Below, piece by piece: positions 9,184 through 28,712 of a stretch of DNA of 64,000 nucleotides. The notes under the pieces are model-generated. The model was not told the origin of the DNA, made no database searches, and saw only the letters and a list, made by a program, of their open reading frames with translations. The position numbers and the translations under genes are program-made. The DNA is from Pseudomonadota bacterium (GTDB taxonomy: Bacteria; Myxococcota; JACRCW01; JAFGSX01): assembly GCA_043821645.1 (NCBI GenBank), contig JBDRCO010000072.1, positions 79,962 to 143,961 of the forward strand. The letters run 5' to 3'. Position 1 is the stretch's first letter. Every line of letters starts with the position of its first letter.

Positions 9184-9768
9184 TCAGTAGTAGACCGTGT
9201 AGCCCGCCAGCACCGAGACCGCCGGGAAGTAAATGGAGCCAATGGTAAAGAAGAACTCACCGGCCAGCTCCACGCTCAGGGACATCTCCTCGTGGAAGTA
9301 CCACTCGAGACCTCCAGCTCCCCGCGCCGCCAGGAACATGGCCTGCCCCCCGAGGGCCGGGTTGCCCTGCAATCCCGTCACCGTGTACAGGAACCACAGA
9401 TAGTGCAGATCGGCTTCGACGTAGGGGCGAATGTCCTCGTCGAGGAAGTTGTAGCGAATGCCGGAGATGGCGCTGAGGCTGGTCAGCATCTGCGGCTCGT
9501 CCGGGGTCGTATCGTGGATGGGCAGCGAGAAGCCGAGCATCAGGCGATAGGTCACCCAGAAATTGTATCCGATGGAGTTGGAGCCGCCCACGCCGAGCAG
9601 CACCGCGTCACTGGATCCGATGTCGTTGACCCCGAACAGCTCCAGGGTCAGGTAGCCCACCTGGGGCAGGAAGATCCCATTGTTGCGGAACTGTGCCCGC
9701 GCGGCGGTGGGCGCCAGCAGCGCCACCACCAGGACCAGCGCACCCCATCCTGCTCGACTCCCACTCAT
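9184..9768 (-). CDS. Putative outer-membrane beta-barrel protein
   Basis: Signal peptide MSGSRAGWGALVLVVALLAPTAARAQ; alternating aromatic/hydrophobic beta-strand pattern and C-terminal ...AGYTVYY ending in aromatic residue. Confidence 0.45.
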   Translation of the reverse strand: MSGSRAGWGALVLVVALLAPTAARAQFRNNGIFLPQVGYLTLELFGVNDIGSSDAVLLGVGGSNSIGYNFWVTYRLMLGFSLPIHDTTPDEPQMLTSLSAISGIRYNFLDEDIRPYVEADLHYLWFLYTVTGLQGNPALGGQAMFLAARGAGGLEWYFHEEMSLSVELAGEFFFTIGSIYFPAVSVLAGYTVYY

Positions 9769-9915
9769 GGACCCACCTCGTCGCCTGCTGGAGCCTCAGG
9801 CTGCACCCGTTTGGGTATCTCTTTTTGCCAGCGCTGTCGACCCGCTTGCCCAGGGCACCTGCACCCCGTATTCTCGGTCCGGTGGCGTGCTGGGTTGCGC
9901 CCTTGATCGGGGAGT

Positions 9916-12526: not shown

Positions 12527-13396
12527 ATGAGATCATCCCTGGCCCTGCTCGCGCTCTATCTCCTGATCTCGCCGCACCCGGTGCGCGCGCAGGCCGAGTC
12601 CCGACCCCGCCAGAAGGTCGCGGTGTTCGATCTGCGCACCACCGGTCTCGACGACGGAGCCCGCGGATCCCTGATGGCCGTGTTGACCAAGGCCGTGGCG
12701 GCGGCCCCCTGGCTCGATGTGGTGAGCCGCGACGAGATCGCCACCATGCTCGACGCCGAGGCCCAGAAGCAACTGGTGGGCTGTGACGATACCGGCTGCC
12801 TGGCTGAGATCGCGGGAGCCCTCGACGTGGACATGCTGGTGGCAGGGAGCGTGACCCGGCTCGGCGAGTCGCTGGTGGTGACCCTGCAGCTCATCAACCA
12901 GCGCTTTGCCAATGTCATGAACCGGGTGGCTGTGACCTGGAATGGCCCGCACGATCGTCTGCCCGAGGTCCTGGAAGCCGCTGTGCAGTTGCTGATCCTG
13001 GAACCCGCAGACCGGGTGCCGGTGCGGGTTCAGGTGATCGAGGCGCCGGCGGAGACCGAGGTGTTCGTCGACGAGCACGAGAAGGGCCTGGTGGATGCCC
13101 AGGGTCAGCTCGAGGTGGTGGACGTGGCCGTGGGTCTGCACACGCTGCGCCTGACCGCGCCTGGTCACCAGATGCGCGAGATCCCCTTCGTCGCGCGCGT
13201 CGGCAAGAACATCCGCGTCAACGGAGCCCTGGAGCCGCTGCCCTTCTACGCCACCTGGTGGTTCTGGACCGGCGCGGCGGTGCTCGGTGGTGGCGCCATT
13301 CTGGCAGGTGCGGTGGCGACGGTGCTGGTGCTGTCGGATAACACCGGATCGGTGCGCATCGAAGCCAACCCCAACACGGCACAGGAGGTCCCATGA
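12527..13396 (+). CDS. Secreted protein with PEGA-like domain and C-terminal membrane anchor
   Basis: Track ORF 12098..13396; start at MRSSLALLALYLLISPHPVRAQA (ATG 12527); central VRVQVIEAPAETEVFVDEHEKG...HTLRLTAPGHQ resembles PEGA beta-sandwich; C-terminal helix WWFWTGAAVLGGGAILAGAVATVLVL. Confidence 0.5.
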   Translation: MRSSLALLALYLLISPHPVRAQAESRPRQKVAVFDLRTTGLDDGARGSLMAVLTKAVAAAPWLDVVSRDEIATMLDAEAQKQLVGCDDTGCLAEIAGALDVDMLVAGSVTRLGESLVVTLQLINQRFANVMNRVAVTWNGPHDRLPEVLEAAVQLLILEPADRVPVRVQVIEAPAETEVFVDEHEKGLVDAQGQLEVVDVAVGLHTLRLTAPGHQMREIPFVARVGKNIRVNGALEPLPFYATWWFWTGAAVLGGGAILAGAVATVLVLSDNTGSVRIEANPNTAQEVP

Positions 13397-14619
13397 TGCG
13401 GGGCGCGACCTGGCTGTTCGCACTCCTCGTGGTCGCCGCCACCAGCTGCGCCGGGGGAGGCCACGAGATCGCCCTGGGGCGACCGCAAACCCTGCGCGGC
13501 CTCGAGGGCGTCCCCCTGAGCGCGACCGCCGAGGTGTACCGCGAGGCCCAGGGATGCACGGGCAAGACCGTCACCACCGAGACCCTGGACGCGCAAGGTG
13601 ATCGCTTCGTGGGGACCCTGCACCTGCGCCCCGGCGCATATTTTTTCTGTGTGCGTTTTCGCTCCGGGGACACCGAGCTGGGTCTGTACCAGGACCTGGC
13701 TCTCGAGGTGACGCTGGGGGCCGACGACACCCTCAAGCTCCTCGATACCCATTTCCATTATCGCGACCTGGACGACGATCAGGATGGCATCGCCAACCTG
13801 GATGAGGTGCGCTTCAATTTCGATCTCAACACTCCGGACACGGACAGCAGCACCCGGGTCGACCTGCCGGCGCAGCCAAGCTTCGAGCTCGGTGCCTCGG
13901 ACAGTGCCGCAACCGTCGTCGAGATCCCGGCTCACAACATCGCGATACCCGCCTTCGCCATCGACAGGCTCGAGGTGAGCGTCGAGCGCTACCGCCTGTG
14001 TGTGGTGCGCAACCAGGATCCGTGCGCGCCGCCGCGCGGCATGGATCTGTTCGAGTTCATGAACCTCAACGCGACCGCCCGCCAGCTCCCGGCCACCGGC
14101 GTCGCGCTGGAGGATGCCAGACGTTTCTGCCAGGACGTGGCAGGGGGCGACCTGCCCCTGGAGCAGCAGTGGGAATATGCGGCACGGCCCGATGGCACGG
14201 TCTACCCGTGGGGCGACCAGCCCCCCGACGCTGGGCAGGCGCGCTGCGACTGGATCAACGCCCGCTGGCCGGCGGGTCCGTCCTCGTACCCGTGCTTCGG
14301 GGACAGTACGCCGGAACTGGTACCGGTCGCCCACTTTGACCTGACCGGAGATCTTCGCGGCTGCAGCCGACGCCCGGGCTCTTCGGCGCCGGACGGCCCC
14401 TGCCAGATGGCCGGCAACGCCTGGGAGTGGACGCGCAGTGACTTCGTGCCCTACGATGGTCCGGCCTGGCCTTCGCCGGGTGCGCTGACCGTCGTCCGCG
14501 GTGGCAGTGCGGACTCCCTCGACCACTCTCTCCGCTCGACCTTCCGCGTGGGGGTGGCCCCGGACCTGAGTGGCAGCGAGGCCTTGGCACCCCTGATCGG
14601 GTTCCGCTGCGTGTACTGA
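13393..14619 (+). CDS. FGE-sulfatase (formylglycine-generating-enzyme-like) domain lipoprotein
   Basis: Signal/lipobox LFALLVVAATSCAG; C-terminal half carries RFCQDVAGG...GNAWEWTRSDF...RGGS motifs typical of the FGE-sulfatase fold; start overlaps previous stop (ATGA). Confidence 0.55.
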   Translation: MMRGATWLFALLVVAATSCAGGGHEIALGRPQTLRGLEGVPLSATAEVYREAQGCTGKTVTTETLDAQGDRFVGTLHLRPGAYFFCVRFRSGDTELGLYQDLALEVTLGADDTLKLLDTHFHYRDLDDDQDGIANLDEVRFNFDLNTPDTDSSTRVDLPAQPSFELGASDSAATVVEIPAHNIAIPAFAIDRLEVSVERYRLCVVRNQDPCAPPRGMDLFEFMNLNATARQLPATGVALEDARRFCQDVAGGDLPLEQQWEYAARPDGTVYPWGDQPPDAGQARCDWINARWPAGPSSYPCFGDSTPELVPVAHFDLTGDLRGCSRRPGSSAPDGPCQMAGNAWEWTRSDFVPYDGPAWPSPGALTVVRGGSADSLDHSLRSTFRVGVAPDLSGSEALAPLIGFRCVY

Positions 14620-14631
14620 CGACACAACACG

Positions 14632-16512
14632 ATGCGCATCCAGACACGCCTGCTCCTGATCCTGCTCGTCGTGGCGCTCGTGCCCGTGACCGTGAGCGGT
14701 GTGACGGCCGTGATGCTGAGCCGGCGCGTGCTCACGCGGCAGATCCAGCAGGTGCAGGTCACCGAGGCGAGGACCCTGGCCGAGAACGTCGACAGCTACA
14801 TCGGAGAGGCACTGCGCGAGTTGCGCCTGGTCGCCGACATCACACCCTTCGCCACCCTGTCCGGCGAAGAACAGCGAGGTGCCCTGGGCCTGGTCTACCG
14901 CCTGCACGATGGATTCAACGTGGCCGGGCTGGTGGACAGTGCCGGCGAGGGCGTGGGACCCCCCGTCTTCACCACGGACAAGGCCAGCGACCCCAGCACC
15001 GCGCGCCACCACCCGGTCAACGAGGCCGAGCTGGTCCGTTTTGCCTCCAACATTCCGCTGCAAGCGGCGCTCACCGCCGGCGCCGCGGTGGGCCCGGTCT
15101 ACGTGTCGACCGAGAAGGGCTTGCCCCTGCTGGTGCTTGCCGTGCTGGTTCCGGGGCGGGTTCAGGATCGCGAGATCGTTCTCGCGGTGGAGCTGGCCCT
15201 GGATCCCGTGCTCAAGCGCGTGCAGGAGACGGCGTCGCAGGTCGGTGCCACGGCCTACATCGTGGACAGCCGCGGCCGCGTGGTGGCTCACAGCCTGCCC
15301 GAGGTTGCCCTCGCGCGCAGCGACTTCAGCGAGCGAAAGCCGGTCCAGGCCATCACGGGCAGCGCGCTCGATAGCCACGGCATGGTCCGCTACCGGGCCG
15401 GCGACACCCGGCTCGCCTCGGCCTTTGCCAGGCTCGGACGCTTGCCCTGGGGTGCCGTGGTCGAGCGGCCCGAACAGGAGGCCTTCGCCCCTGCCAACCA
15501 GATCGCCAAGCAAACCATCTTCTGGATCGCCGTCGCCCTCATCTGCGCCATCGCCGCAGGCCTGGTACTGTCGCGGAGCATTGGCGACCCCCTGCATGCA
15601 CTGACGCGGGTCGCCGAGTCCCTGGGGCAAGGCGACCTCGACGTGAGGGCCCGCGTCTCCGGCCGCGACGAGCTGTCGCAGTTGGCCTCCTCCTTCAACC
15701 AGATGGCCGACGCCATTGCCCGGCGTGACGAGGAGCTGCACGCCTTTGCCGACGACCTGCAAAAGCGTGTGGAGGAGCGAACCCGCGAACTCAAGCTGGC
15801 TCAGGACCAGCTGCTGCAATCCGAGAAGCTGGCTGCGGTGGGCGAGCTGGGCGCGGGCGTGGCACACGAGATCAACAACCCGCTGGCCGGTGTCCTGGGC
15901 TCTGCCCAGCTGTTGCTGCTGCGCACGGAGCCCGACCATCCGTCCCGCGAGCACCTGGGCAACATCGAATCCGAAGCTTTGCGGATCCGCGAGATCGTGC
16001 AGAACTTGCTACAACTGGCCCAGAGCAAGGAGAAGGCGGCGGGGACCTTGATCGACGTCAACCGGGTGGTCGAGGCCGCCCTGAGCCTAGTGGCCAGACC
16101 CATCATCGCCCAGCGCATCCGCGTGCACAAAGACCTGACCTCGGGATTGCCCAAGATCCGGGCCTCGGCCTCGGATCTGCAGCAGCTCTTCATGCACCTG
16201 CTGTCCAATGCCAAGAACGCCATGCCCGACGGCGGCGAGCTGCGTATCGCCTCGAGTGCCATCGAGAACAGGCTGGTCAAGGTCACCATCGCAGACACCG
16301 GCATCGGCATTCGCCAGGAGGACCTGGACAAGATCTTCGAGCCCTTCTTCACACGCAAGGAGGACTGGGACGGCAAGGGTCTTGGCCTGTCCGTCGTCCA
16401 CCGCACCGTCGAGCAGACAGGTGGCCGCGTGACCGTCGAGAGCGAGCGCGGTCATGGAGCCTGCTTCACGCTGGTCTTCCCCATGGCCCGCGACGGCCTG
16501 CACCTGGCCTGA
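14632..16512 (+). CDS. Sensor histidine kinase with periplasmic sensor and HAMP domain
   Basis: N-terminal TM, second TM IFWIAVALICAIAAGLVL, HAMP-like linker, H-box AGVAHEINNPLAGV, N/G boxes (LLSNAKNAM, DTGIGI, GKGLGLSVV). Confidence 0.7.
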   Translation: MRIQTRLLLILLVVALVPVTVSGVTAVMLSRRVLTRQIQQVQVTEARTLAENVDSYIGEALRELRLVADITPFATLSGEEQRGALGLVYRLHDGFNVAGLVDSAGEGVGPPVFTTDKASDPSTARHHPVNEAELVRFASNIPLQAALTAGAAVGPVYVSTEKGLPLLVLAVLVPGRVQDREIVLAVELALDPVLKRVQETASQVGATAYIVDSRGRVVAHSLPEVALARSDFSERKPVQAITGSALDSHGMVRYRAGDTRLASAFARLGRLPWGAVVERPEQEAFAPANQIAKQTIFWIAVALICAIAAGLVLSRSIGDPLHALTRVAESLGQGDLDVRARVSGRDELSQLASSFNQMADAIARRDEELHAFADDLQKRVEERTRELKLAQDQLLQSEKLAAVGELGAGVAHEINNPLAGVLGSAQLLLLRTEPDHPSREHLGNIESEALRIREIVQNLLQLAQSKEKAAGTLIDVNRVVEAALSLVARPIIAQRIRVHKDLTSGLPKIRASASDLQQLFMHLLSNAKNAMPDGGELRIASSAIENRLVKVTIADTGIGIRQEDLDKIFEPFFTRKEDWDGKGLGLSVVHRTVEQTGGRVTVESERGHGACFTLVFPMARDGLHLA

Positions 16513-16557
16513 GGGGCCGCGGGCTGGTAGTCTCTGGGTGAGGGAGAGAATGCATCC

Positions 16558-17304
16558 GTGAACCGGCCGACCATGCTCATCGTCGACGACGAGGCCACCC
16601 TGCGGACCGTGCTGGGTGCCATGTACACCGACGCTGGCTTCGAGGTCCGCACCTGCGGCAGCGCGGAAGAAGCCCTGGTGGACCTGGCCGCGAAGCCCTG
16701 CGACGTGCTGGTGGTGGACAAGAACCTTCCCGCGATGAACGGCATTGATCTGGCGCGCCAGGTGCTCGGCCTGGGCGCGGCCCAGCATGCGGTGATGATC
16801 ACAGGCTACCCCTCGACGACCTCGCTCATCGAGGCCATCAATGTTGGCATCCGCGGCTACCTCATGAAGCCCTTTCGAACCCTCGACGACGCGATCAAAG
16901 AAGCGCACTTCGTGGTGGACAATCCGCCCCGGCGAACGCGCCTGGGGCCGGTGGCCCTGCGCGCACACCTCGATGCAAGCAGCCCTCTGGATCCAGCGCC
17001 GAGCGCGGTGGTGGTGGTCAGCGACGTCAAAGTGCGCGACCAGTTCACGCGGCACCTGGGTGGGCCCATCCGCACCTTCGGGTCGGTGGAGTTCGGGTTG
17101 GCCGCACTCTACGATCGACCGCCCGACGTCGTCGCGGCGGACAGCGTCGTCGATCTGCTGCGAATGATCGAACGTGCTCCCGCGGCCTGTGGGTGTTACG
17201 TGGGCGCGTCGCCTGGCTTCGAGGACGCCCTGCGCTTGATGCGTGCTGGTCCCATGCTCGTGGCCGAGCCCGAGCAGCTCCGCGAGGGGAAACGGGGCAC
17301 ATGA
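16558..17304 (+). CDS. Response regulator, receiver domain plus degenerate C-terminal half
   Basis: MLIVDDE acidic pocket, phospho-acceptor-like D in VLVVDKNLP, conserved K in YLMKP; C-terminal 120 aa resemble a second receiver without the acidic residues. Confidence 0.6.
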   Translation: MNRPTMLIVDDEATLRTVLGAMYTDAGFEVRTCGSAEEALVDLAAKPCDVLVVDKNLPAMNGIDLARQVLGLGAAQHAVMITGYPSTTSLIEAINVGIRGYLMKPFRTLDDAIKEAHFVVDNPPRRTRLGPVALRAHLDASSPLDPAPSAVVVVSDVKVRDQFTRHLGGPIRTFGSVEFGLAALYDRPPDVVAADSVVDLLRMIERAPAACGCYVGASPGFEDALRLMRAGPMLVAEPEQLREGKRGT

Positions 17305-18287
17305 AGCGAAGCGTGCAGCTGGTGATCGTGCTGGTGCTCATCCTGGGCGGTGCGGCACTGCTGTACAGGCAGCTCTTTCCAGATGGCGGGGGCTCCCAGG
17401 TCTCGGCCACAGACGCGGCAACCCGGGTCCTTCCGAAGCTGGATGCAGCACAGGGCCCCGACGAGGACGCGGGTCGCGAGGATGGAGCCACGGCCACCGC
17501 GACGCGTGCCGAGATCATGGACCTCCGGGGGGTCGCGCAGCGCCGTCTGCCCGGGGGGCGCTGGGCAGACATCACCCAGGGCGACGCCCTCTCGCTCGAT
17601 GACACCATTCGAACCCTCGGCGGTGGCAGCGCCCTGGTGCAACTGGGCAACGCGGTCCAGGTTCGGCTGACGCCACACACCGAGGTCACCATCCGCGAGC
17701 TGACAGAGCGCACCTCGCGCGTCCGCATCGAAGAAGGCCGCATCGTGGCAGAGGTCAACCCGCAGGGGCGCACCGTGCTGCGTGTCGAGGCCAAGGGTTC
17801 CCGGGCCGTGGCTGAGGCCTCCGCGGGCAGCTTCTCGATGATCAGCGACGGCCGTGGCCAGGTGGCGGTCGCCACCAGTGCCGGATCGGTCAAGCTGGTT
17901 GCGGCCGGCGAGAGCGTGGACATCAGCGCCGGACAGGTGGCCCGGGTCAGTGGCGATGCAGCCCCCACGGCTCCGGCGGCCATTCCGACCTCGCTGTACC
18001 TCAAGGTCGCGGCCCCCTTGCGTGCGATCCAGCGCGAGAAAGAGACCGTGGTCCAGGGCACCGCAACACCCGGGGCACTGGTGCGCGCGGGCGAGCAGGT
18101 GGCCATGGCCGACGAGCGGGGGGCCTTCCGACTGCGCGTACCCCTGCGCGAGGGCAAGAACGACGTGCAGATCCGCGTCACCGATGTCGAGGGCCGGGAG
18201 CGCACTCAAAAGATGCCGGCGATCACCGTCGATACCCGCGAGCCCACGATCCAGAACCCCCAGGTGCAGTGGGGCGAGGACCCCTGA
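17301..18287 (+). CDS. FecR-domain protein (membrane-anchored)
   Basis: Track ORF 17193..18287; start at MKRSVQLVIVLVLILGGAALLY overlapping upstream stop; FecR-like beta-rich core (ALSLDDTIRTLGGGSALVQLGNAVQVRLTPHTEVTI). Confidence 0.5.
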   Translation: MKRSVQLVIVLVLILGGAALLYRQLFPDGGGSQVSATDAATRVLPKLDAAQGPDEDAGREDGATATATRAEIMDLRGVAQRRLPGGRWADITQGDALSLDDTIRTLGGGSALVQLGNAVQVRLTPHTEVTIRELTERTSRVRIEEGRIVAEVNPQGRTVLRVEAKGSRAVAEASAGSFSMISDGRGQVAVATSAGSVKLVAAGESVDISAGQVARVSGDAAPTAPAAIPTSLYLKVAAPLRAIQREKETVVQGTATPGALVRAGEQVAMADERGAFRLRVPLREGKNDVQIRVTDVEGRERTQKMPAITVDTREPTIQNPQVQWGEDP

Positions 18288-18362
18288 GCTCGGCCTCGCC
18301 CCGCCACCCAAACCCATGGTCCTTGCACGGCCACAAAGTGGCATGGTGGTGCCATCGCCGCT

Positions 18363-20360
18363 ATGCTGAAACGCGATGCGTCCGGAGTTCGCAGCGAGGA
18401 GAGTCCTGTGATCGGCAGCGTGTGCGCGCTGACCTGGATGGTGCTGTCCCAGCCCATGGCTGTGGATGGCATCCTGCCAGCCGGGGATATCCAGATCTCA
18501 GTCTCGCCGGACCATCTGGACCTCGGCGCCGAGCAGCCCGCCACGCTGACCCTGCATGTGTTCAACGCCGACGGCACACCCCAGGATCAGACGCCACCTG
18601 TCCTGCTCGCGTCGATGGGAACTGTTGACGGGCTCCGACGCGTGGCTCCCGGTGTGTTCGTGGCGTCCTACCTTCCTCCTCGATCTGGCTCCCCGCGGGT
18701 CGCGATCATCCTGGCTCGGACCCGGACGCGCAGCGGCCTCATTGCCGGTTGGGCCCGAATTCCGTTGTGGGGCAAGGGCAAGGTCAGCCTCGTCACCAAG
18801 CCGCAGTCCCAGGTCTGGCTCCGTATCGGCGAGACGGCGTTCGGACCGTCCGAGTCCGATCAGAAGGGCCGCGCCAACATCGCCATCCGGGTGCCGCCTG
18901 GGCCCCGCCAGGGCATTGCCGAGACCCTGGATCTCGCGGGCAACACGAGCAAGAAGACCATCGATCTGGGGGTCCGGTCCTTCAACCGGATGGCTGCCTT
19001 CGTCCTCGACGAGAGCATGGTGGCCGATGGCAGCGAGCAGTCCGGCCTGATCGCCTTCGTCGTCGACGACAGGGGAGATCCTCTCATCGAGGCGGACATC
19101 CAGGTCCAGGTCCGGCGCGGCCAGGTGGGTACCGTGCTGCCCCTGGCGCCAGGCGTTTATCGCATCGCCTACAGCTCCCCGAGGGAGATCGGCGATGGCA
19201 AGGACAGCGTCGAGCTGAGCCTCGCCCTGGACCAGACCTCGCGCCGGAACCTGCAGATCGCGCTGACCCCGGGCCTTCCCCAGCGCATTGAGCTGTCAGT
19301 GTATCCCCTGGAGTACCGGGCGGGGTCCGCGGTGCGCCCGGTCATCACCCTGCGGGCTTTCGACGCGTCGGGAAACGTGGCGCCCGCGTCCCTGGTGGAC
19401 CTCACCACCCAGGGTGGCGTGCTGGGCAATGCGCAGCCGGCGGCCCAGGGCGCCGTGCGCATCCCGATCGAACTCAGCGACCGATTCGGCGGGCGCGAGG
19501 TTCTGGTGGTGCGCGCCGAGGCCGTGCGCGGCCAGGCCCAGGCGGAGCTTCGTGTGCCCTTGCTGCCCGACCGCTGCGCCAGGATCACCCTCCGCGGTCC
19601 CGAGCAACTCATCGGCGACGAGCGGCGCGCGCAGTTCACCCTGCGCTGCACGGACCGCTTTGATAATCCCGCGCCCGCGGACGGCATCCAGGTCACGAGT
19701 GCTCTGCTCCTCGTCGAGAACGTGCAGCGGGCTGACGACGAGGTTCGCGTGACCGTGCGCACCCCCTTTCTGACCGCGCCCGACGACGCCACGCTGCTGG
19801 CCCAGGACGGCGAGGCAAGGACCAGCTCCCGCGTCCACCTGCTCCCGGGGATTGGTGTGCAGGCCGTGCTGGGGCCTCGCCTGGTGCTCGGCTGGGCCTA
19901 CGGCGAGCGCTGGCTCACCGGCGCGGCCCTGGACTGGTCGCTGGGGCTCCCGATTGGCCGCGACATGCTGCTTGTGGGCATGAGCCTGGGCGCGCTGCAG
20001 TCCCCCTCCGAGCGGCCACAACCAGGCCTCACGACGGGCGTACGCCGGCTGCTCACGTCCCCCCTGGTGTTCGCCGCGCAGTACGAAAAGCAGGTCCATC
20101 CGCGCATCGCGCTCCATGGTGGGTTGAGCGCAGGCCCGCTGTTCGTGGCACCGACGCTCGAACGCAACGGCGCACGCGTCGATGCTGCACTGCGAACCGC
20201 ACTCCTCGCGGAGGCCATCCTGGGCGCGGGACTGCGCCTCGGTGATGGCATGTTCACCCTGGACCTGCGGGGAGGCTATGCCCTACCCCTTGGCGACGAG
20301 TCCGGGCTCGGCATGCTGTCAGGGCTCTCCATGTCGATGGGCTACCGCTACTACTTCTGA
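18363..20360 (+). CDS. Large secreted protein with tandem Ig-like modules and C-terminal beta-rich (barrel-like) region
   Basis: 665-aa ORF; repeated beta-sandwich-like segments; C-terminus ...SMGYRYYF ends in aromatic residue as in OM barrels. Start uncertain (ATG 18363 or downstream GTG). Confidence 0.45.
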   Translation: MLKRDASGVRSEESPVIGSVCALTWMVLSQPMAVDGILPAGDIQISVSPDHLDLGAEQPATLTLHVFNADGTPQDQTPPVLLASMGTVDGLRRVAPGVFVASYLPPRSGSPRVAIILARTRTRSGLIAGWARIPLWGKGKVSLVTKPQSQVWLRIGETAFGPSESDQKGRANIAIRVPPGPRQGIAETLDLAGNTSKKTIDLGVRSFNRMAAFVLDESMVADGSEQSGLIAFVVDDRGDPLIEADIQVQVRRGQVGTVLPLAPGVYRIAYSSPREIGDGKDSVELSLALDQTSRRNLQIALTPGLPQRIELSVYPLEYRAGSAVRPVITLRAFDASGNVAPASLVDLTTQGGVLGNAQPAAQGAVRIPIELSDRFGGREVLVVRAEAVRGQAQAELRVPLLPDRCARITLRGPEQLIGDERRAQFTLRCTDRFDNPAPADGIQVTSALLLVENVQRADDEVRVTVRTPFLTAPDDATLLAQDGEARTSSRVHLLPGIGVQAVLGPRLVLGWAYGERWLTGAALDWSLGLPIGRDMLLVGMSLGALQSPSERPQPGLTTGVRRLLTSPLVFAAQYEKQVHPRIALHGGLSAGPLFVAPTLERNGARVDAALRTALLAEAILGAGLRLGDGMFTLDLRGGYALPLGDESGLGMLSGLSMSMGYRYYF

Positions 20361-20382: not shown

Positions 20383-21906
20383 TCAGCGTGCTGTGAGATC
20401 GACGCTGCGCTGGACGCGTTCTCCAGCCCGGACCTCGACCTGGATCGTGCGCGTCAGGTCGAAGACCGGGTTGTGCAGGGTGATGCGGTGGGTTCCGACC
20501 GGCAACGAGAGGTCGCGCAGCGGTGTATGGCGCTTGATGGACACCCCGTCGATGGCCACCTGCGCCCAGGGCTCGGCGTGGAGATCCAGCCAGCCGTAGC
20601 CGGATGCCGCGTCCGCCGCCATCGAGGGCTGCGCCACCCGGATCGGTCTGCGGTGCGTGGGGCGGACAACGCCCGCATCCCGCCGCGACATCTCGTGCCC
20701 ATCCTGTGCCGTCCGCTGCACTGCCGCATCCTCCGTCGTGGGCGCGAGAATTCCGGCCTCGCGGCCAACGACCTGCATCACCAGGGCTGGCGCAGCATCC
20801 CGGGGCGTCTGCAGCACTGCAGCGTCGAGCACCTGCCCCTCCCCGGGTCGCTGCCAGTCCCGTAGGGCGATCCCTGTGGCCAGCACGACCAGCCCCACCA
20901 CCAGCGCTGGCACCCACCAGCGCCTGGAGTTGCCCGTGTCGGGCCTCCCCACGACCAGGGTCCGGCGTCGCGGTGCCGGACGCACCCTGTCCTCGAGCGG
21001 CTGGCGCTGACCCAGCACCTCGCTCATCAGCTCCTGCACCGGCACCGGCCCCAGCGACAGGCCCTCCTCGCGGGCGAGACGGCGCACCTGAGCGGCCACC
21101 TGCTCCGCGCCAGAAGGCCTCTCGCCGGCATCTCGCTGCAACAGCTGCAGGACCAGGGCATCGAGACCCGGCATCACCCCGTCGCGCAGCGACCCGGGCG
21201 CTGGAATCTCGGCATCGCGAACAGCCTGGACCGTGTCCAGGTCGGTGTCGCGGTCAAACAGGGGCCGACCGGCCAGCATCTCCCACAGCACGATGCCAGC
21301 GGAGAACAGGTCACTCGCAGGAGTCAGGGCCTCGCCGCGGGTCTGCTCGGGCGACATGTACGCGAACTTGCCCTTGAGGTCGCCGACCCGCGTCTTGTGC
21401 GTCTTGACCACCACCTGCACCACGCCGAAGTCCGTGAGCTTGACCGCACCATCGGTCCCGCACAGCAGGTTGCCCGGGCTCACGTCGCGATGGATCAAGC
21501 ACAACGTGCAGCCCTCCTCGTCCTCCATGGCATGCAGGTAGGCCATGGCGTCGAACAGGGCACAGGCCACGGTCAGGGCGAAGGCGAGCGGCAGGGGCTG
21601 ACTGCGGCGGTCCTGAAGCAGGGTGGCGAGGTCCGTGCCATCCACCAGCTCCATGGCCAGGAAGGGTCCCTCCTCGTCGCTGCCGTGTTCGAGCAAGCGC
21701 ACGACATTGGGATGGCGCAACCGCGCCCACACCCGGCACTCGTCCTGGAACATCTCGACGTAGTCCGGGTCCGCGTCGAAGGGCCGCTTGATGCGCTTGA
21801 GCGCAACCAGGGTGTCCCGGTCCAGGTCCCGGGCCAGGCAGATCTCTGCCATGCCGCCGTCGGCGAGCAGACCCAGGGATTGGTATCGAGACGTGCGTGG
21901 TTCCAT
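20383..21906 (-). CDS. Serine/threonine protein kinase with TM segment and C-terminal PEGA-like domain
   Basis: Track ORF 20383..22854; start at MEPRTSRYQ (ATG 21906). Hanks motifs: VALKRIK, HRDVSPGN, DFG, AYMSPE; TM WWVPALVVGLVVLATGIAL; C-terminal beta-rich segment. Upstream 316 codons of the track ORF are antisense to the next gene. Confidence 0.7.
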   Translation of the reverse strand: MEPRTSRYQSLGLLADGGMAEICLARDLDRDTLVALKRIKRPFDADPDYVEMFQDECRVWARLRHPNVVRLLEHGSDEEGPFLAMELVDGTDLATLLQDRRSQPLPLAFALTVACALFDAMAYLHAMEDEEGCTLCLIHRDVSPGNLLCGTDGAVKLTDFGVVQVVVKTHKTRVGDLKGKFAYMSPEQTRGEALTPASDLFSAGIVLWEMLAGRPLFDRDTDLDTVQAVRDAEIPAPGSLRDGVMPGLDALVLQLLQRDAGERPSGAEQVAAQVRRLAREEGLSLGPVPVQELMSEVLGQRQPLEDRVRPAPRRRTLVVGRPDTGNSRRWWVPALVVGLVVLATGIALRDWQRPGEGQVLDAAVLQTPRDAAPALVMQVVGREAGILAPTTEDAAVQRTAQDGHEMSRRDAGVVRPTHRRPIRVAQPSMAADAASGYGWLDLHAEPWAQVAIDGVSIKRHTPLRDLSLPVGTHRITLHNPVFDLTRTIQVEVRAGERVQRSVDLTAR

Positions 21907-22002
21907 TGCGACCCGGTCCAGGTTGCCTGTATCGTAGCCTGCCTGTTCAGGTGCGCAAAACTGCAGGTGGCGTGTCGTCCACGGAACCGGGAAGCATCGC
22001 TC

Positions 22003-23208
22003 GTGCTCGCTTGCTCCAGCATCCTGCTTGCTGCTCATCTGGCCCTGGCCAGCGCTCCCCGCGCGGCCATCCTGTCCCTCGACGACGGGGAGCAGGTCCC
22101 GGCGCAGCAGGCAGCCATCGAGGCGAGCCTGGCGGTCCGCGGCTACAGCAGCATCGACAGTGTGGATGCCCGCAGGTTGCTCGGCGACGAGCCTCCCGAG
22201 CAGGATGCCCAGGCGCTGGCCATCGAGGCCAAGAAAGCCTTTGGCGACTTCGATAGCACCACCGCACGCGAACGTCTGCGACAGGCCCAGGACATTCTGT
22301 TTGAATCGCCACGCATCCTTTCCGAGCGCACGCTGCTGGCGGACCTGCACCTGCTCGAGGGCCAGATCGCGCTCAGCGCGGGGCAGCACGACGAGGCCCT
22401 GCAGGCCCTGGCCCGCGCGGCACTGCTCGAGCCGGACAGGACCCTGCACCCCGGGCTGTATCCGCCGGACCTCATCGAGTCCTACACCGAGGCCCAGGAT
22501 TGGCTGAAGACCCAGGCCCAGGGCGCACTGGTGGTGACGACCTGGCCGGAGCATGCGCATGTCTACGTCGACGGCGTGTTCCGCGGCGAGGCGCCGGCGG
22601 TGATCGAAGGTCTGCCCGCAGGCTGGCACTACGCCACAGCCGCCGTGGATGGTCGGGGCGCGCGCACGCGGCCTTTCCTCGTCGAGGGAGGGCGCTCCAC
22701 ACAGACCACGCTGTTCGTGCCGGATGAAGCGGTCCGGGAGCAGCTCCCTTCGCTGCTGCGACGCTACCGGGCCCAGCCGGACGATGCCGATGTCGCCGCC
22801 AGGTTGCTCACCGCGGTGGGTGCACAGCTCCTCGTCGCCACGGGCACGAGCCACGACGCGGCGGCCCAGATTCTCGACGACGATCAGGCCGCGGTGGTCG
22901 TGGAGCCCGTCCTGGCGTCCACGATCGCCATCGAGGCGCGGGTCGACAAGCTCCTCGAAGCCCTCAGGAAAAAGCGCCCGGCCTCGCTGCCCGGCGTGGG
23001 CACCACAGCCACCTCGGACAGTCCACCGGCCTCGCTCGACCCGTCCGGCGATGGGGCTCCCTCACCCTGGCCCTGGATTGCCGCCGGGGCCGCAGGCCTG
23101 GTACTCGCAGGTGGAGTCACCGCCGCCATCGCCATCGCCATCGCCCTGGGGCAGCCCGAGGAGCCGGAGGATCGCGTCGATATCTACCTCGGGGGGCCCA
23201 GCCTGTGA
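22003..23208 (+). CDS. Secreted protein with TPR-like helices, PEGA-like domain and C-terminal TM
   Basis: Track ORF 21397..23208; earliest plausible start after the divergent kinase gene is GTG at 22003 (VLACSSILLAAHLALASA signal-like); PEGA-like VVTTWPEHAHVYVDGVFRGEAP...; C-terminal helix WIAAGAAGLVLAGGVTAAIAIAIAL. Confidence 0.45.
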   Translation: MLACSSILLAAHLALASAPRAAILSLDDGEQVPAQQAAIEASLAVRGYSSIDSVDARRLLGDEPPEQDAQALAIEAKKAFGDFDSTTARERLRQAQDILFESPRILSERTLLADLHLLEGQIALSAGQHDEALQALARAALLEPDRTLHPGLYPPDLIESYTEAQDWLKTQAQGALVVTTWPEHAHVYVDGVFRGEAPAVIEGLPAGWHYATAAVDGRGARTRPFLVEGGRSTQTTLFVPDEAVREQLPSLLRRYRAQPDDADVAARLLTAVGAQLLVATGTSHDAAAQILDDDQAAVVVEPVLASTIAIEARVDKLLEALRKKRPASLPGVGTTATSDSPPASLDPSGDGAPSPWPWIAAGAAGLVLAGGVTAAIAIAIALGQPEEPEDRVDIYLGGPSL

Positions 23209-24098
23209 TGCGGCTGCGCTCAGTTGCGCCGTGCGCGAGCGTCCTGGCCCTGGCCTGGATCCTCGGTGCATGCCCCAAGCCAGTGCCACCGCCAGTGCGC
23301 ACCGTGTCCATCAAGCCGTACTTCAAACCGTCGTGCGACTCGATCTGTGTCAGCACCTGTCTGGCCTGCGTCGACACCCTGCAGGTGTTCGCCATCGATG
23401 CCACGGGCCAGCGCCTGGTCGAGCGCTGTCTGGACGTCACCGGACGCTGGGAAACCCTGTGCGACCTGGCCACCGGCAGTGCCCAGCGATTGCTCGAAGA
23501 AGTCCCGACGAAAGAACCGGTGGTGCTCGAACTGCGGGCCTACCGTCGCCGCGACGCCTGGCGCCCGGATGCCGGTGTCGACGGAGGCAGCCTGTGCCAG
23601 GTGCTGCCGCGCAGCCGTGCGTGGAGCTGCGATGTCCACCAGAGCGACCTGATGCTGTGGGGCCGCGCGCGGCCCACGGATCTGAGCGCGGATGGGGGTC
23701 AGAGCAGCATCCTGGTCGAGTTCGAATGTCGCGCGGGCTGTGACTGCGTGGACATCGCAGCCCGCAAGCCGAGCTGCCCCGACGATCTGCCCGAGAGTGC
23801 GTGCGTCCCCGGCGATAGTTGCAGGCTGGGCTGCATCGATCAGACGGGCTGTTTCGAGGGTGCCCTGCGCTGCGACGTCGACGCCGGGCACTGTGACCCC
23901 GAATCTGCCGTCGGCTCGGCCACCCTCCCTTTCTGTGCGTCCTGCCAGCGTGCCAGCGACTGCCAGGACAGGTTGTGCATTGGCCGCCCGGGCCAGGATG
24001 GGGGCTTCTGCGCGCGCTCCTGCCCAGACCTGTCCTGTCCGCGCGGGGCGAAGTGCACAGCCATCGGCAATGACGGCGGATACAGCACCCTGCCCTGA
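23205..24098 (+). CDS. Cys-rich lipoprotein
   Basis: Lipobox ALAWILGACP; 30+ Cys in C-x-C / CxxxC clusters; start overlaps previous stop. Confidence 0.5.
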   Translation: MMRLRSVAPCASVLALAWILGACPKPVPPPVRTVSIKPYFKPSCDSICVSTCLACVDTLQVFAIDATGQRLVERCLDVTGRWETLCDLATGSAQRLLEEVPTKEPVVLELRAYRRRDAWRPDAGVDGGSLCQVLPRSRAWSCDVHQSDLMLWGRARPTDLSADGGQSSILVEFECRAGCDCVDIAARKPSCPDDLPESACVPGDSCRLGCIDQTGCFEGALRCDVDAGHCDPESAVGSATLPFCASCQRASDCQDRLCIGRPGQDGGFCARSCPDLSCPRGAKCTAIGNDGGYSTLP

Positions 24099-24129: not shown

Positions 24130-24981
24130 TCAGGCCAGAGCCACGGCCTCGGCCACCACCACCTGCCCGCGGTCCTCCCGCACCCTGCAGGCCGCCACCA
24201 CCGGGTCGTGCTCGAAGACCAGGATCCAGTTGTCCTCGACCGCCTGGGCCAGGATGGCTTTCTTCTCCTCGATGGTGGTCAGGGGATACAGGTCATAGCC
24301 CATGACCCACGGGATGCGCAGATGGGCTGTGGTCGGGATCACGTCGCCACAATACAGCAGGGTCTCGCCGCCACCCCGAACCCGTACCAGCTGCTGACCC
24401 ACGCTGTGTCCCTCGCTGACCAGCACCTCGACACCGTCGAAGATCTCGGTATCTCCGTCGAGCAGGTGCAGCCGGCCGCTGCGCGCGAGCAGGGTCACCT
24501 CGTCGAGCTTGAACGAACCGCGATCCTTCTCACTGGCGTGCTCTGCCCACTTGAAGTGCCGGCGCTGCAGGTGGTGGGTCGCCTCGGAAAATGTCGGCAC
24601 GAGGGTGCCCGCGCCATCCCGGCGCACGATGCCTCCGGCATGATCGAAATGCAGGTGGGTCAAGATCACATCCGTGACCTCGTCCGGCGCGACGCCGATG
24701 CGCTGCAGGGCGCCCAGGACACCTCCAGCCACGGGAGCCAGGTCGTAGATATCCTGCTCGCGCTCGCTCCAGTTCTCGCCGGCGCCGGTGTCGACCAGGA
24801 CCAGCCGACCGGCCACCCGCAGCAACAGGCAGCGCAGTGCCAGCGGGATGCGATTGCGCACATCCGCAGCGATCTGCTTCTCCCACAGCGGCTTGGGAAC
24901 GACGCCAAACATGGCGCCACCGTCGAGCGCGAAGCGTCCCATCTCGATCGTTCGAACCTCGATCTCGCCCAGCTGTCGCAT
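24130..24981 (-). CDS. MBL-fold metallo-hydrolase
   Basis: HxHxDH zinc motif (LTHLHFDHAGG) and downstream His/Asp ligands; start taken at MRQLGEIEV. Confidence 0.6.
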   Translation of the reverse strand: MRQLGEIEVRTIEMGRFALDGGAMFGVVPKPLWEKQIAADVRNRIPLALRCLLLRVAGRLVLVDTGAGENWSEREQDIYDLAPVAGGVLGALQRIGVAPDEVTDVILTHLHFDHAGGIVRRDGAGTLVPTFSEATHHLQRRHFKWAEHASEKDRGSFKLDEVTLLARSGRLHLLDGDTEIFDGVEVLVSEGHSVGQQLVRVRGGGETLLYCGDVIPTTAHLRIPWVMGYDLYPLTTIEEKKAILAQAVEDNWILVFEHDPVVAACRVREDRGQVVVAEAVALA

Positions 24982-25138
24982 CCTCGAACCTCGCACCTCA
25001 GACGTCCTGGTCGACCCCCTGGCACCTCGTCAATTCTGGGCCGTTCTCGCTCGAGCTGCAACGCTGGCGCTCGCGGGCACCGACGCCAGCGGCTTTCCTT
25101 GCACGCGGCCGCCGGAACGCGATACCACAGGAAAGGTG

Positions 25139-27019
25139 ATGCCACGCCAGCGCCACAGATGCGTGTTTTCGCGATACCGGACCAGGGCCGGTGCACTGTT
25201 CCTGTGCCTGACCCTGGCGTGTGAGCACACACCAATCAAACCGGACGAGACCAGCACCTTGACCCGGAGGTCGGCAAAGGACACGTCCCTGGCGACGCTG
25301 CCTGCCGACGAGGTTCGATTCATCTCCTCCGAGGCTTACTACCACTTCTTGCAGGGACAGCTTGCGGCCGATGCTGGGCAGTGTGAGCGCGCGATCGAGC
25401 ATTATCGAGAGGCCCTGTCCTTCGATCCGGACTCGGCACACCTGCACGTGCTCTGTGGCCGCTGCCTGCTTCGACTCGGACGCCTGGACGACAGCCTGCG
25501 CGAGGCCAGACGCGCCGTGGCACTCGATCCGTCGGGTGCCGATGCCTCCCTGCTGCTGGCCCGCGGCCTGATGCTCGCGCGGGATCTGCCGCAGGCCGCG
25601 CAGGTGCTCAAACGCGCCGCCGAGGCACACCCGGAGACCACGAGTCTCGTCGAACTGCAGGCGGAGATTGCCCTGGACCGGGGTCAGGACGAGTACGCGC
25701 TGCAGCTGATGCAGCGGCTCGCGACCCACGACCCCTCGGATCCGCGCCCAACCCTTGCTCTCGGCTTGTTGTTGCTGCGCCAGACCCGCTGGGAACTCGC
25801 GGCCCAGGCCCTGGAGCAGACACTGCAACGCGACCCCGATTCCCTCGACGCCATGGACGCCCTGACCCGAGCCTACGAGCACCTGGACCGCCGCGAAGAC
25901 GCCGCACGGGTGGCTGCACGCCGTCTCGATCTGACCCCGGACGACCGGGATGCCATCTATTCCTTCATGCGCCTGCAGGCGCGGACAGGTCAGCTGGGTC
26001 CCGCACAGGTGCTGATGCAGCGCTGGCACGACGAGGAAGGGAGCGCGGAGCTTTGGGTGGCGGCGGCCCAGGGACTGGCGGACGGAGGCGCCGACGCCAG
26101 CGCGGTCACGGTTCTCGACGAGATCCTGGCACGCGAACCGGATCTGGACCTGGCCCTGTTTACCGCAGGAAGCCTGCATGCGCGACACGGCCGCCTGAAA
26201 CGCGCCGATACCCTCCTGCGCCGCCTCGAGCCCGGTTCTCCACTCTTCTCCGAAGCGCAGGTCGAGCGCAGTCGCGTGCTGTGGCGCATGGGACGCCTCC
26301 GGGAATCGCGGGAGGTCCTGGAGCAAGCCCGCACCAGCGTCCCCGACAGCCTCGAGATAAGCCTGGCTCTCGCCGATGTCCTCGCCCGCCAGCAACAGTA
26401 CGAGAGGGCCTTCGCCATTCTCGAAGAGCTCCCCGTGCCCGCCCTGGGCCGCGAACTGGTCGTGGCGGCGCGCTCGCAGCTGCTGGCCGAGATGGGTCGT
26501 GCCGACGAGAGCGTGCAGGTTGTGTCTGACCTGGTGGCCCTGCGCCCCGACGATGCCGACCTGCTGGTGCTGCTGGCCATCGCCTACGAGCGCGCCGGAC
26601 GAAAAGCCGAGAGCGAGGGTGCGGCGCGCCAGGCCCTCACTGCCATGCCGGACCATGTGGCCGCCCAGAACTTCCTGGCCTACACCCTGGCTCAGCACGG
26701 GGACAGGCTGGACGAGGCCGTAGAACTCGCCCGGAGGGCGGTGTCGACCAGTCCAGACGACGGCTACATCGTCGACACTCTGGGTTTCGTGCTGCTGCAG
26801 CAGGGAAGCGTGGCTGAGGCCAGACAGGTCTTGCTCAGGGCAAATGAACTCAGCCCCGACGAGCCAGAGATCCTCCTGCACCTGGGAGATACGGAGCGCG
26901 CTCTGGGTCAACACCACAGCGCCCTGAAACGCTACCGCCGCGCACTCCAGCTGAGCCCGCGCGAGCGAAGCGTCCGCGAGGCGGTGCAGGAGCGCTTGAC
27001 CCGAGGAGGCTCGAGGTGA
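25139..27019 (+). CDS. TPR-repeat lipoprotein
   Basis: Track ORF 24788..27019; start at MPRQRHRCVFSRYRTRAGALFLCLTLAC (ATG 25139); more than 12 TPR-like units across 620 aa. Confidence 0.6.
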   Translation: MPRQRHRCVFSRYRTRAGALFLCLTLACEHTPIKPDETSTLTRRSAKDTSLATLPADEVRFISSEAYYHFLQGQLAADAGQCERAIEHYREALSFDPDSAHLHVLCGRCLLRLGRLDDSLREARRAVALDPSGADASLLLARGLMLARDLPQAAQVLKRAAEAHPETTSLVELQAEIALDRGQDEYALQLMQRLATHDPSDPRPTLALGLLLLRQTRWELAAQALEQTLQRDPDSLDAMDALTRAYEHLDRREDAARVAARRLDLTPDDRDAIYSFMRLQARTGQLGPAQVLMQRWHDEEGSAELWVAAAQGLADGGADASAVTVLDEILAREPDLDLALFTAGSLHARHGRLKRADTLLRRLEPGSPLFSEAQVERSRVLWRMGRLRESREVLEQARTSVPDSLEISLALADVLARQQQYERAFAILEELPVPALGRELVVAARSQLLAEMGRADESVQVVSDLVALRPDDADLLVLLAIAYERAGRKAESEGAARQALTAMPDHVAAQNFLAYTLAQHGDRLDEAVELARRAVSTSPDDGYIVDTLGFVLLQQGSVAEARQVLLRANELSPDEPEILLHLGDTERALGQHHSALKRYRRALQLSPRERSVREAVQERLTRGGSR

Positions 27020-27834
27020 CCCGGCACACTGTGCGTCGTCGGTTTCCAGCACCGCTGACCTTTGCTGTCGCGCTTGGTGTGCTCACCACGTCGGGGTGTC
27101 CGCACCCTGCCTCTCCCATCCCGCGCCTGGCCGGCGTCGAGCCGGCGGATCTGCTCGCGCGTCTGCAGGTCGCGTGGGATAAACCTCGCCAGGCGGTGGG
27201 CCTGGTCCTGCTGGAGTATCTGGCGAGCGACGGCTTTTTTCGCGGCGAGGCTGACGTGGCTGTGCAACGGCCGCGGAACCTGCGCATCGAGCTGCGGTCC
27301 TTCTTCGGGCAGCCGGCCGGGGCGCTGGTTTGTGATGGGCGACGTTACACCTTCGTGGACAACACCAGGGCGATCAGCCAGTCCGGCCCGCTGGACGACC
27401 CGGCCCTGCGTGCCCTGCTCCCCCTAGGGCTCGACGCCACGACGACGGTCTCGCTGCTCCTCGGAGGGCTCCCCGCCCTCGGACCCGGCTCCACCTCCTA
27501 CATCAAACCGCAACGACCTCCACACCTGGCGCTGCGGCACGACGACGAGGCAGGGCGCTGGCTGCTCGAGCTCGACGACAGGGCCGAGCGTCTGCTCCAG
27601 GTCGAGCACCAGGACAGCCGGGGCGATCTGCGCTTCCGGGCGCGCTTTGACGGCGCCGACTCCAGAGGCACCGTACGCTTCTCGCGCAAGGGTGAGGTCG
27701 AGGTGCGCGGGCGTGCAGGTGCCGTGAGCTGGGCTTGGAAGGACGTCGAGCTGGACGGTGAGGCCTTGCCGGCCGAGGCCTGGCAACTCAATCTACCAGG
27801 CAGCAGTTCCGACGACGACCAGAGCGAGGATTGA
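27016..27834 (+). CDS. Lipoprotein, possibly LolA/LolB-like fold
   Basis: Lipobox LGVLTTSGCP; beta-rich; start overlaps TPR stop. Fold assignment is a guess from architecture and adjacency to a TPR gene. Confidence 0.4.
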   Translation: MTRHTVRRRFPAPLTFAVALGVLTTSGCPHPASPIPRLAGVEPADLLARLQVAWDKPRQAVGLVLLEYLASDGFFRGEADVAVQRPRNLRIELRSFFGQPAGALVCDGRRYTFVDNTRAISQSGPLDDPALRALLPLGLDATTTVSLLLGGLPALGPGSTSYIKPQRPPHLALRHDDEAGRWLLELDDRAERLLQVEHQDSRGDLRFRARFDGADSRGTVRFSRKGEVEVRGRAGAVSWAWKDVELDGEALPAEAWQLNLPGSSSDDDQSED

Positions 27835-27923: not shown

Positions 27924-27938
27924 GGTATAGGTTTGTCG

Positions 27939-28712
27939 ATGGATCGACGCATCCGGTTGGGCGAATTACTGCTGCGTGCGGGGCTGATCACCGAGATGCA
28001 GCTCAAGGCCGCCCTCGCGGAGCAGAAGAAGTGGGGAGGACGGCTGGGCACTATCCTCGTCAACATGAATTTCATCTCAGAGGATATCCTGGTCAAGGGC
28101 CTGGCACGCTTGCTCGAAGTGCCCCGGGCGGACTTCGAGAACATGAACGTGCCCGACGTGGTCCTGCAGCGCTTCGACCCCACCGACTGCCAGACCCGTG
28201 GCTACCTCCCGGTGCAGTACAGCCACGCAGAGAAGAAGCTCACCGTGGCATTCGTCGACGTCAACGATCTCGCCCTCGTCGACGAGCTGCGGTTCAAGCA
28301 CGGCCTCAACATTCAGCCCGCCATCACCGGCGAGCACGCCCTGCAGGCCTCGTTGCGCAGTCTTTTTTACAGCGAGGCGCTGGACGCGAGTGTCACCGGC
28401 CAGGAGCCTGGGCTCAAGCTCATCGACAGTCGCGGCGGGACCCTGGTCAAGAACCGCGCGGAGATCTTTGGCAACGAGCCTCCGCCGGCGCCGGTGGCCA
28501 CCACGGGGGTTGAGCGTGCACCCGCCGGTGTGGCCGCGGCCCTGCCGCCCCCCCCGGTGGGCGGGATCCCCGCAGGACTGCTCAACGAGCTCGAGATCGC
28601 GCAGCGGCGCCAGTCCAGAGCCATCAAGACCGTCCTGGAGCTCCTGATCGAGAAGGGAGTGATCTCTCGCGAGGAGTTCGTCGCCAGCGTCAACAAGCGC
28701 AGCGACAGTTAG
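27939..28712 (+). CDS. MshEN (T2SS GspE N-terminal) domain protein, predicted c-di-GMP receptor
   Basis: N-terminal RLGELLLRAGLITEMQLKAALAEQ fits the 24-residue MshEN motif RLGxx(L/I)(L/I)xxG(L/I)(L/I)xxxxLxxxLxxQ; followed by GGRLGTILV...ISEDILVKGLARLL second motif and remainder of a GspE_N fold; Pro/Ala-rich linker and short C-terminal helix. Confidence 0.65.
   Translation: MDRRIRLGELLLRAGLITEMQLKAALAEQKKWGGRLGTILVNMNFISEDILVKGLARLLEVPRADFENMNVPDVVLQRFDPTDCQTRGYLPVQYSHAEKKLTVAFVDVNDLALVDELRFKHGLNIQPAITGEHALQASLRSLFYSEALDASVTGQEPGLKLIDSRGGTLVKNRAEIFGNEPPPAPVATTGVERAPAGVAAALPPPPVGGIPAGLLNELEIAQRRQSRAIKTVLELLIEKGVISREEFVASVNKRSDS

Follow-up and report, generated by a model that had tools for sequence, protein, structure and literature searches.

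A Hanks-type Ser/Thr kinase gene conserved next to a divergent TPR-PEGA anchor and Cys-rich lipoprotein pair: a candidate envelope-signalling module of Myxococcota-like bacteria

Introduction

The window analyzed in this work is a 64-kb stretch of DNA with a GC content of ~68%, and our subject is the interval 20383-24098, which includes exactly three genes: one encoding a receptor-type Hanks Ser/Thr kinase and, transcribed divergently from it, a pair encoding a bitopic protein with tetratricopeptide repeat (TPR)-like and PEGA regions, hereafter the anchor, and a Cys-rich lipoprotein. A sequence-only reading had called attention to this interval and proposed that PEGA-like modules in three proteins of the neighbourhood point to a shared ligand or partner. 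Here the genes between 12.5 and 33 kb were resolved by means of GC3 phase and Pfam searches, and the window was compared with related loci, labelled L001, L002 and so on. From these analyses it was observed that the kinase and the pair recur together over deep divergence, and the evidence leans modestly towards a conserved three-gene module that would carry envelope signals from the periplasm to the cytoplasm in uncultured, high-GC, Myxococcota-like bacteria.

Results

Organization of the three genes

The interval begins at the final base of the kinase stop codon (20383) and ends with the lipoprotein open reading frame (ORF; 24098). Its features are the following, with transmembrane abbreviated as TM and amino acids as aa:

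20383-21906, reverse strand: receptor-type Hanks Ser/Thr kinase, 507 aa, start ATG at 21906 (Pfam, ortholog N-termini)
20392-20565, reverse strand: C-terminal PEGA domain of the kinase, aa 448-505 (Pfam PF08308)
20602-20862, reverse strand: low-complexity linker of the kinase, predicted periplasmic, aa ~349-435 (ortholog alignment)
20863-20916, reverse strand: single predicted TM helix of the kinase, aa 331-348 (Kyte-Doolittle hydropathy 2.17)
21097-21882, reverse strand: kinase domain, predicted cytoplasmic, aa 9-270 (alignment to PknB, invariant ortholog columns)
21907-22002: divergent intergenic region, 96 bp (from the coordinates)
22003-23208, forward strand: TPR-PEGA anchor, bitopic, 401 aa
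23205/23208-24098, forward strand: Cys-rich lipoprotein, 296/297 aa

The ORF that contains the kinase (20383-22854, 823 aa) is over-extended; the first third of its length faces the anchor gene on the other strand. On the basis of the GC3 phase and of the N-termini of the orthologs, which begin M(A)TRYQ, the start was placed at the ATG at 21906 (MATRYQ). In the NCBI call for this gene (P0001, 551 aa) the start is set at 22038, which creates an overlap of 36 nt with the divergent gene; this start looks wrong, 44 codons too early judging from the sequence. An exact-sequence look-up with the window kinase and with P0001 returned no record. Both promoters, that of the kinase and that of the anchor operon, presumably lie in the 96-bp intergenic region; a scan for promoter and terminator consensus sequences together with Rfam gave no match, and no sigma-70 consensus was found in these 96 bp.

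The kinase domain

The Pkinase profile (PF00069) matches the protein with 133.1 bits (cutoff 31.7, E=1.5e-38), and the nearest solved structures in a PDB sequence search are the kinase domains of PknB, StkP and PknA (E=4e-45). The domain shows an AxGGMAE G-loop, K37, E56, the catalytic loop HRDVSPGN, DFG, a KTHKT activation loop and SPE. In a residue alignment K37, E56, D141, N146 and D159 correspond to K40, E59, D138, N143 and D156 of PknB, and all five are invariant among the orthologs; Thr172 of the activation loop corresponds to PknB T171. The intact Hanks core that had been read from the sequence is thus borne out.

Two positions depart from the canonical HRDxKxxN and GxGxxG motifs. Ser143 occupies the place of the catalytic-loop Lys (PknB K140), and in the G-loop, which reads ADGGMA, an Ala replaces the first Gly. 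These two residues would fit a catalytically impaired pseudokinase or scaffold that signals without phosphotransfer; however, conservation holds for K37, E56, D141, N146, D159 and the Thr of the activation loop, and the variants HRD[VI][ST]PxN and AxGGM occur in ~95% of more than 110 retrieved homologous kinases, so that both substitutions are a signature of the subfamily, a trait under selection, and not decay. We consider an impaired kinase very unlikely.

Two short motifs are invariant in all orthologs, including that of L009: KTHxT in the activation loop (aa 168-172, ~21391-21405) and RRRT in the juxtamembrane region (aa 313-316, ~20959-20970), ~15 residues before the TM helix. Both are candidate autophosphorylation sites.

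Membrane topology and the PEGA ectodomain of the kinase

The topology was predicted from Kyte-Doolittle hydropathy profiles, from the positive-inside rule and from the need of the kinase domain for ATP. Four K/R residues are present in the 15 residues that precede the single TM helix and one after it; this charge bias and the hydropathy profile suggest an N-in/C-out orientation with the PEGA end facing outwards, and since the kinase domain requires cytoplasmic ATP, the PEGA domain would be periplasmic. The single helix and outward C-terminus proposed earlier therefore agree with the prediction, which does not place the C-terminus in the cytoplasm. Between the TM helix and the PEGA domain there is a linker of ~90 aa that in the ortholog alignment shows little conservation and a variable length. 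The PEGA match itself (PF08308) is just above the cutoff (22.3 bits vs 20.8, E=1.3e-4), and its motif EPWAxVAIDG...TPLR...G.HR.TLHNP is kept in the orthologs, including those of L009 and L010.

The anchor

The start of the anchor gene agrees with the NCBI call P0134 ("PEGA domain-containing protein"). The protein comprises an export signal (aa 1-19), a TPR-like helical region (aa 69-170), a PEGA sandwich (aa 173-238) and, after an alpha/beta region and a disordered linker, a C-terminal TM segment (aa 358-385) with a conserved tail of 16 aa. Its PEGA match covers aa 174-210 with 23.5 bits (cutoff 20.8), which supports the earlier description of the divergent neighbour as a PEGA protein with a TM anchor, and its TPR_2 match is sub-threshold (19 bits). 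In an AlphaFold2 (AF2) model with an overall pLDDT of 71, the helical-repeat domain at aa 69-170 is very confident and the PEGA region, aa 173-238, is modelled as a seven-strand beta-sandwich (pLDDT ~82-92); the alpha/beta region, the disordered linker and a C-terminal TM helix are likewise visible in the model. A PDB sequence search with the anchor gave nothing significant.

The N-terminus resembles a signal peptide, with a short hydrophobic segment and a conserved AxA-PRAA motif at its end. It has no basic n-region and carries Pro at +1 after AxA, and for this reason its cleavage and, strictly, also the export of the protein are uncertain. The tail that follows the TM segment (aa 386-401, 23158-23205; PEEPEDRVDIYLGGPSL) is acidic, and its conservation extends to L006 and L091; cytoplasmic flanks of stop-transfer segments are normally basic, which makes an acidic tail unusual.

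The Cys-rich lipoprotein

The stop codon of the anchor gene (TGA, 23206-23208) overlaps a GTG at 23205 and an ATG at 23208 (CTG-TGA-TG), either of which may be the start of the lipoprotein gene, and the translational coupling of the two genes proposed earlier is consistent with this TGATG overlap. The third product is a predicted lipoprotein: it has the lipobox LGAC, and the Cys predicted to be lipidated, Cys23 (23271-23273), is invariant. There are 28 Cys in the window protein. Cys23 and 27 other Cys positions are common to 13 close homologs, and over 49 wider family members Cys23 and another 21 Cys remain without change. The protein can be divided in an N-terminal beta-sandwich half and a C-terminal disulfide-rich half. 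The NCBI call (P0121, 264 aa) leaves out 23205-23303, and with it the signal peptide and lipobox that are invariant in the family, so it is probably too short, starting 33 codons too late.

A profile search against 1.84 billion representatives defined a family of 53 clusters (E<1e-10), whose representatives are, with few exceptions, proteins of 260-310 aa with 23-27 Cys and a signal-plus-Cys N-terminus. No match to the lipoprotein was found in Pfam (including a scan of 49 members), in NCBIfam or in a PDB sequence search. A scan of a genome collection for the lipoprotein found one species representative, on the same contig as L001.

Conservation of the gene trio

Blocks of ~20 kb are syntenic with the window in L001 (a Deltaproteobacteria metagenome-assembled genome, MAG), L002/L003 and L004, which represent three further lineages; nearly all of 13-16 genes are kept in synteny, the orthologs are 50-55% identical, and a TM-PEGA kinase ortholog is adjacent and divergent in all close relatives. 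Synteny in these loci alone could reflect shared ancestry, and more distant loci were retrieved through lipoprotein homologs matched by the A1 lipoprotein profile at E ~1e-24 to 1e-32, with 27-36% identity for those that were aligned.

In every one of these loci with readable upstream DNA the lipoprotein gene is immediately preceded by another gene. The two share 1 or 4 nt in L006, L007, L009, L010 and L091, and are separated by 4 nt in L008 and by 77 nt in L092. The upstream product is a detectable homolog of the anchor in L006, L009, L010, L091 and L092 and a weak match in L008 (hhalign E=9e-5), i.e. in six of seven lineages if L008 is counted; the partial upstream ORF of L007 showed no match to the anchor. 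A divergent kinase stands next to the pair in L009, L010 and L091, three of the four distant loci with enough upstream sequence. The L009 and L010 kinases align with the window kinase over their full length, TM helix and PEGA domain included (hhalign 1.5e-82 and 2.5e-37; Pfam PEGA 21.7 and 20.2 bits), and the L091 contig contains an N-terminal kinase fragment only (1.8e-37). The other neighbours in L009, L010 and L091, where the GC content is 52-66%, are unrelated to those of the window. Given that the trio recurs at distance while the other neighbours differ, the stable unit is the trio, and its recurrence supports the view that the kinase and the divergent pair are functionally linked. Family members are labelled as Myxococcota or Deltaproteobacteria MAGs.

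A metagenome scan with the kinase alignment retrieved 80 loci, all from the broad KGKFAYM subfamily, and neither the lipoprotein nor the pair is present in any of them. In a rough neighbour-joining tree the trio kinases and two others fall on one side and the remaining 78 kinases of the KGKFAYM type on the other. The pair thus predicts the kinase, but the kinase subfamily extends beyond the trio.

Several distant and close loci show local variations. In L091 (933-1794) the anchor is cut down to ~134 aa, comprising the PEGA domain, the TM segment and the conserved tail, with a separate ORF of 117 aa before it, and a convergent gene downstream of the lipoprotein gene (2603-4786) encodes a TSP_3/OmpA-domain protein. 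A protein of ~350 aa with TPR and Zincin_1 domains follows the lipoprotein gene in L006 (5276-6316) and L007 (1308-2357); the large TPR protein of the window (within 24788-27019) is separated by an intervening gene for a metallo-beta-lactamase (MBL) fold on the opposite strand. In L004 (11086-13733) a second Ser/Thr kinase of 569 aa and a gene for 319 aa lie between the orthologous kinase and the gene of an Ig/barrel protein; the second kinase has a far stronger PEGA match (70 bits, two matched stretches), and the 319-aa product gave no Pfam match.

PEGA modules in the window

Among 38 scanned ORFs of the window a PEGA match was obtained for three: the kinase, the anchor and a protein of 289 aa, whose gene (12527-13396) is 10.7 kb away from where the anchor gene ends. 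A PEGA-like motif can be read in the kinase (AEPWAQVAIDG) and in the anchor (WPEHAHVYVDG). The idea that PEGA occurs in three proteins stood for the kinase and the anchor, which pass the Pfam cutoff, and failed for the third, which is below it (14.6 bits, E=0.032). The module of the third protein aligns with the anchor PEGA in the PEGA register (hhalign E=3.8e-5), and the pairwise comparisons of the three modules (E=1.3e-3, 3.8e-5 and 0.015) reflect the generic PEGA register only; recent or specifically matched paralogy of the modules was rejected on these segment alignments. The anchor and the third protein were also rejected as full-length paralogs (hhalign E=7.6e-4, probability 25%).

The third gene is the first of a neighbouring operon (FGE-sulfatase, dCache histidine kinase, response regulator), in which it shows translational coupling with the FGE-sulfatase gene. 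It is present in L002/L003 and L004, L001 ends short of its position, and it accompanies the trio in the close lineage and not elsewhere. A ligand or partner shared by the three modules, as the sequence-only reading had it, finds no support here: their resemblance is generic, the third protein belongs to a different operon, the combination of kinase and PEGA is common, and the kinases of L011, L012 and L075 have a similar ectodomain without the pair.

Is the kinase a partner of the pair?

The same evidence bears on the idea of a stand-alone PEGA kinase, one of many Myxococcota paralogs, for which the adjacency to the pair would be inherited gene order and the PEGA domains generic spacers. This idea draws on the frequency of the Pkinase plus PEGA combination (PF08308 is present in 35 of the 120 best homologs), on the generic likeness of the three modules, on the 80 related kinase loci without the lipoprotein, and on L006, where the pair has no kinase next to it. 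In contrast, the divergent arrangement of kinase and pair persists in L009, L010 and L091, whose kinases are 24-38% identical and where every other neighbour has changed, and the L009 and L010 kinases have the same TM-linker-PEGA layout with a motif of the EPWA..HNP type. We regard a kinase that acts without the pair as unlikely.

Several observations nonetheless weigh against the three-gene envelope-signalling module. NorB occupies the position of the kinase in L006, and the L011, L012 and L075 kinases, which are among the 80 retrieved loci and have 6 kb of sequence upstream, lack the pair. The sampled loci are few, and the neighbour-joining tree has no support values. The anchor signal is atypical, as described above. 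Full-length hhalign of the kinase and the anchor gave a spurious TM match only, and what their PEGA modules have in common is a generic similarity. As regards the predicted catalysis, the Lys to Ser and Gly to Ala substitutions extend to the whole subfamily, and the interaction of the products and the activity of the kinase are both things that we infer.

Genomic neighbourhood

The remaining genes of the syntenic block, and a cluster that precedes it, are the following:

12527-13396, forward strand: signal peptide, alpha/beta domain, PEGA-like module and C-terminal TM, 289 aa
13393-14619, forward strand: FGE-sulfatase-like
14632-16512, forward strand: dCache-HAMP histidine kinase
16558-17304, forward strand: response regulator
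~17300-18287, forward strand: FecR and Ig-like
18363-20360, forward strand: Ig/Invasin-like, 665 aa, C-terminus ...GYRYYF
24130-24996, reverse strand: MBL fold (MBL hydrolase)
within 24788-27019, forward strand: TPR protein
27016-27834, forward strand: product without assigned name
27933-28712, forward strand: MshEN-domain protein, 259 aa
28768-33006, forward strand: MshEN-domain protein, 1412 aa
6018-7583, reverse strand: TPR protein of a Tol/Exb-like cluster
7814-8626, reverse strand: MotA/TolQ/ExbB protein
8627-9175 and 9184-9768, reverse strand: two small ORFs of the Tol/Exb-like cluster

The six genes from 12527 to 20360 follow each other on the forward strand, and their synteny extends to L002/L003 and L004 and, in part, to L001; the two-component system genes and the Ser/Thr kinase trio are thereby arranged back to back. 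The C-terminal half of the response regulator (~140 aa) has no assignment, and the C-terminus of the 665-aa protein resembles that of an outer-membrane beta-barrel. In the 259-aa and the 1412-aa proteins, both kept in L001-L004, the MshEN domain is N-terminal; the remainder of the larger one gave no Pfam match. The Tol/Exb-like cluster spans 6018-9795 on the reverse strand, and its small ORF at 9184-9795 gave no Pfam match.

It could be argued that the whole syntenic block of ~20 kb forms one cell-surface or adhesion apparatus in which the kinase is one of several regulators. The block includes the PEGA-like protein, the FGE-sulfatase-like protein, the dCache histidine kinase, the response regulator, the FecR/Ig protein, the Ig-repeat protein with a beta-barrel-like end, the kinase trio, the MBL hydrolase, the TPR protein and the two MshEN proteins. 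Its 13-16 genes are almost fully syntenic in L001-L004 at ~50% identity, all three PEGA-like proteins lie inside it, and a PilZ-domain gene follows the MshEN pair at the edge of L001; the MshEN and PilZ families are linked to cyclic di-GMP. Nevertheless, the trio occurs in L009, L010 and L091 without any other gene of the block, and the four syntenic loci may be moderately close relatives. A single apparatus of this kind seems to us distinctly improbable.

Discussion

A working model of the module that we favour can be outlined from the three products. The kinase would have a cytoplasmic PknB-like catalytic domain, one TM helix, a flexible periplasmic linker of ~90 aa and a terminal PEGA sandwich; the anchor would be a TPR-PEGA protein of the periplasm, fixed to the inner membrane by its C-terminal TM segment; and the lipoprotein would be a disulfide-rich protein on a Pro-rich tether. 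The anchor and the lipoprotein may form a periplasmic complex that the PEGA ectodomain of the kinase contacts or monitors. Changes in this complex, for example in how it assembles or folds oxidatively or in the binding of an envelope ligand, could alter the clustering of the kinase and, in consequence, the autophosphorylation of the activation loop (KTHxT) and the phosphorylation of cytoplasmic targets.

A more specific version, in which the trio is a trans-envelope sensor and the lipoprotein a ligand-binding or redox/folding-sensing co-receptor of the Hanks kinase, is a tentative proposal that we judge possible and somewhat doubtful. Twelve or more conserved disulfides are possible in the lipoprotein family. 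If the proposal holds, the trio would be the equivalent, for Ser/Thr kinases, of the lipoprotein sensors RcsF or NlpE, conserved across uncultured Myxococcota, and would provide the first defined partner for a PEGA domain.

The PEGA domain was defined in 2004 as a domain of ~70 aa of archaeal and bacterial cell-surface proteins (PMC2447325), and our literature search on PEGA kinases found this paper and no experimental work. Membership in the family gives no functional prediction of itself, and the matches of the kinase and the anchor pass the cutoff but are marginal (22-24 bits). Myxococcota encode hundreds of receptor-type Ser/Thr kinases. To our knowledge the extracellular input is known for almost none of them, and we know of no ligand for PEGA, a lack that underlies the absence of a functional prediction. 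A trio conserved over deep divergence is a concrete candidate for what the PEGA ectodomain touches; the value of the locus is that of a lead rather than a discovery, together with a newly defined lipoprotein family that has no Pfam model.

Comparison with known systems

The closest well-known kinases are PknB of Mycobacterium tuberculosis and StkP of Streptococcus pneumoniae, which have the same layout (cytoplasmic Hanks domain, juxtamembrane region, one TM helix, extracytoplasmic sensor) and share with the window kinase the activation-loop Thr. In contrast, their ectodomain consists of PASTA repeats, whereas that of the window kinase is a single PEGA domain on a long disordered linker, and their catalytic loop is HRDVKPAN instead of HRDVSPGN. 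The NCBIfam model PknB_PASTA_kin (NF033483) scored 211.9 bits against a cutoff of 450, the match covering the kinase domain only (aa 6-284), and no PASTA domain was found in the window kinase.

The Pkinase plus PEGA kinases (PF00069 and PF08308) of Myxococcota and related phyla, known as a database architecture, have the same domain arrangement and share with the window kinase the subfamily motifs HRD[VI][ST]PxN and KGKFAYM. The kinase itself is an ordinary example of this catalogued architecture. Its orthogroup is set apart by the divergent operon of anchor and lipoprotein, absent from the 80 related kinase loci, and what is new is the conserved adjacency of the kinase to an anchor and a lipoprotein family without a Pfam model.

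In the RcsF-IgaA, NlpE-CpxA, LpqB-MtrB and LpoA/LpoB-PBP (penicillin-binding protein) systems, a lipoprotein with a flexible tether acts together with a partner in the inner membrane to tune, from the periplasmic side, an inner-membrane signalling enzyme. By analogy, and with no homology detected, the window trio resembles the lipoprotein-assisted sensors RcsF, NlpE and LpqB: here too there would be a tethered, disulfide-containing lipoprotein, and in the window its gene and that of the anchor are co-located with the gene of the kinase.

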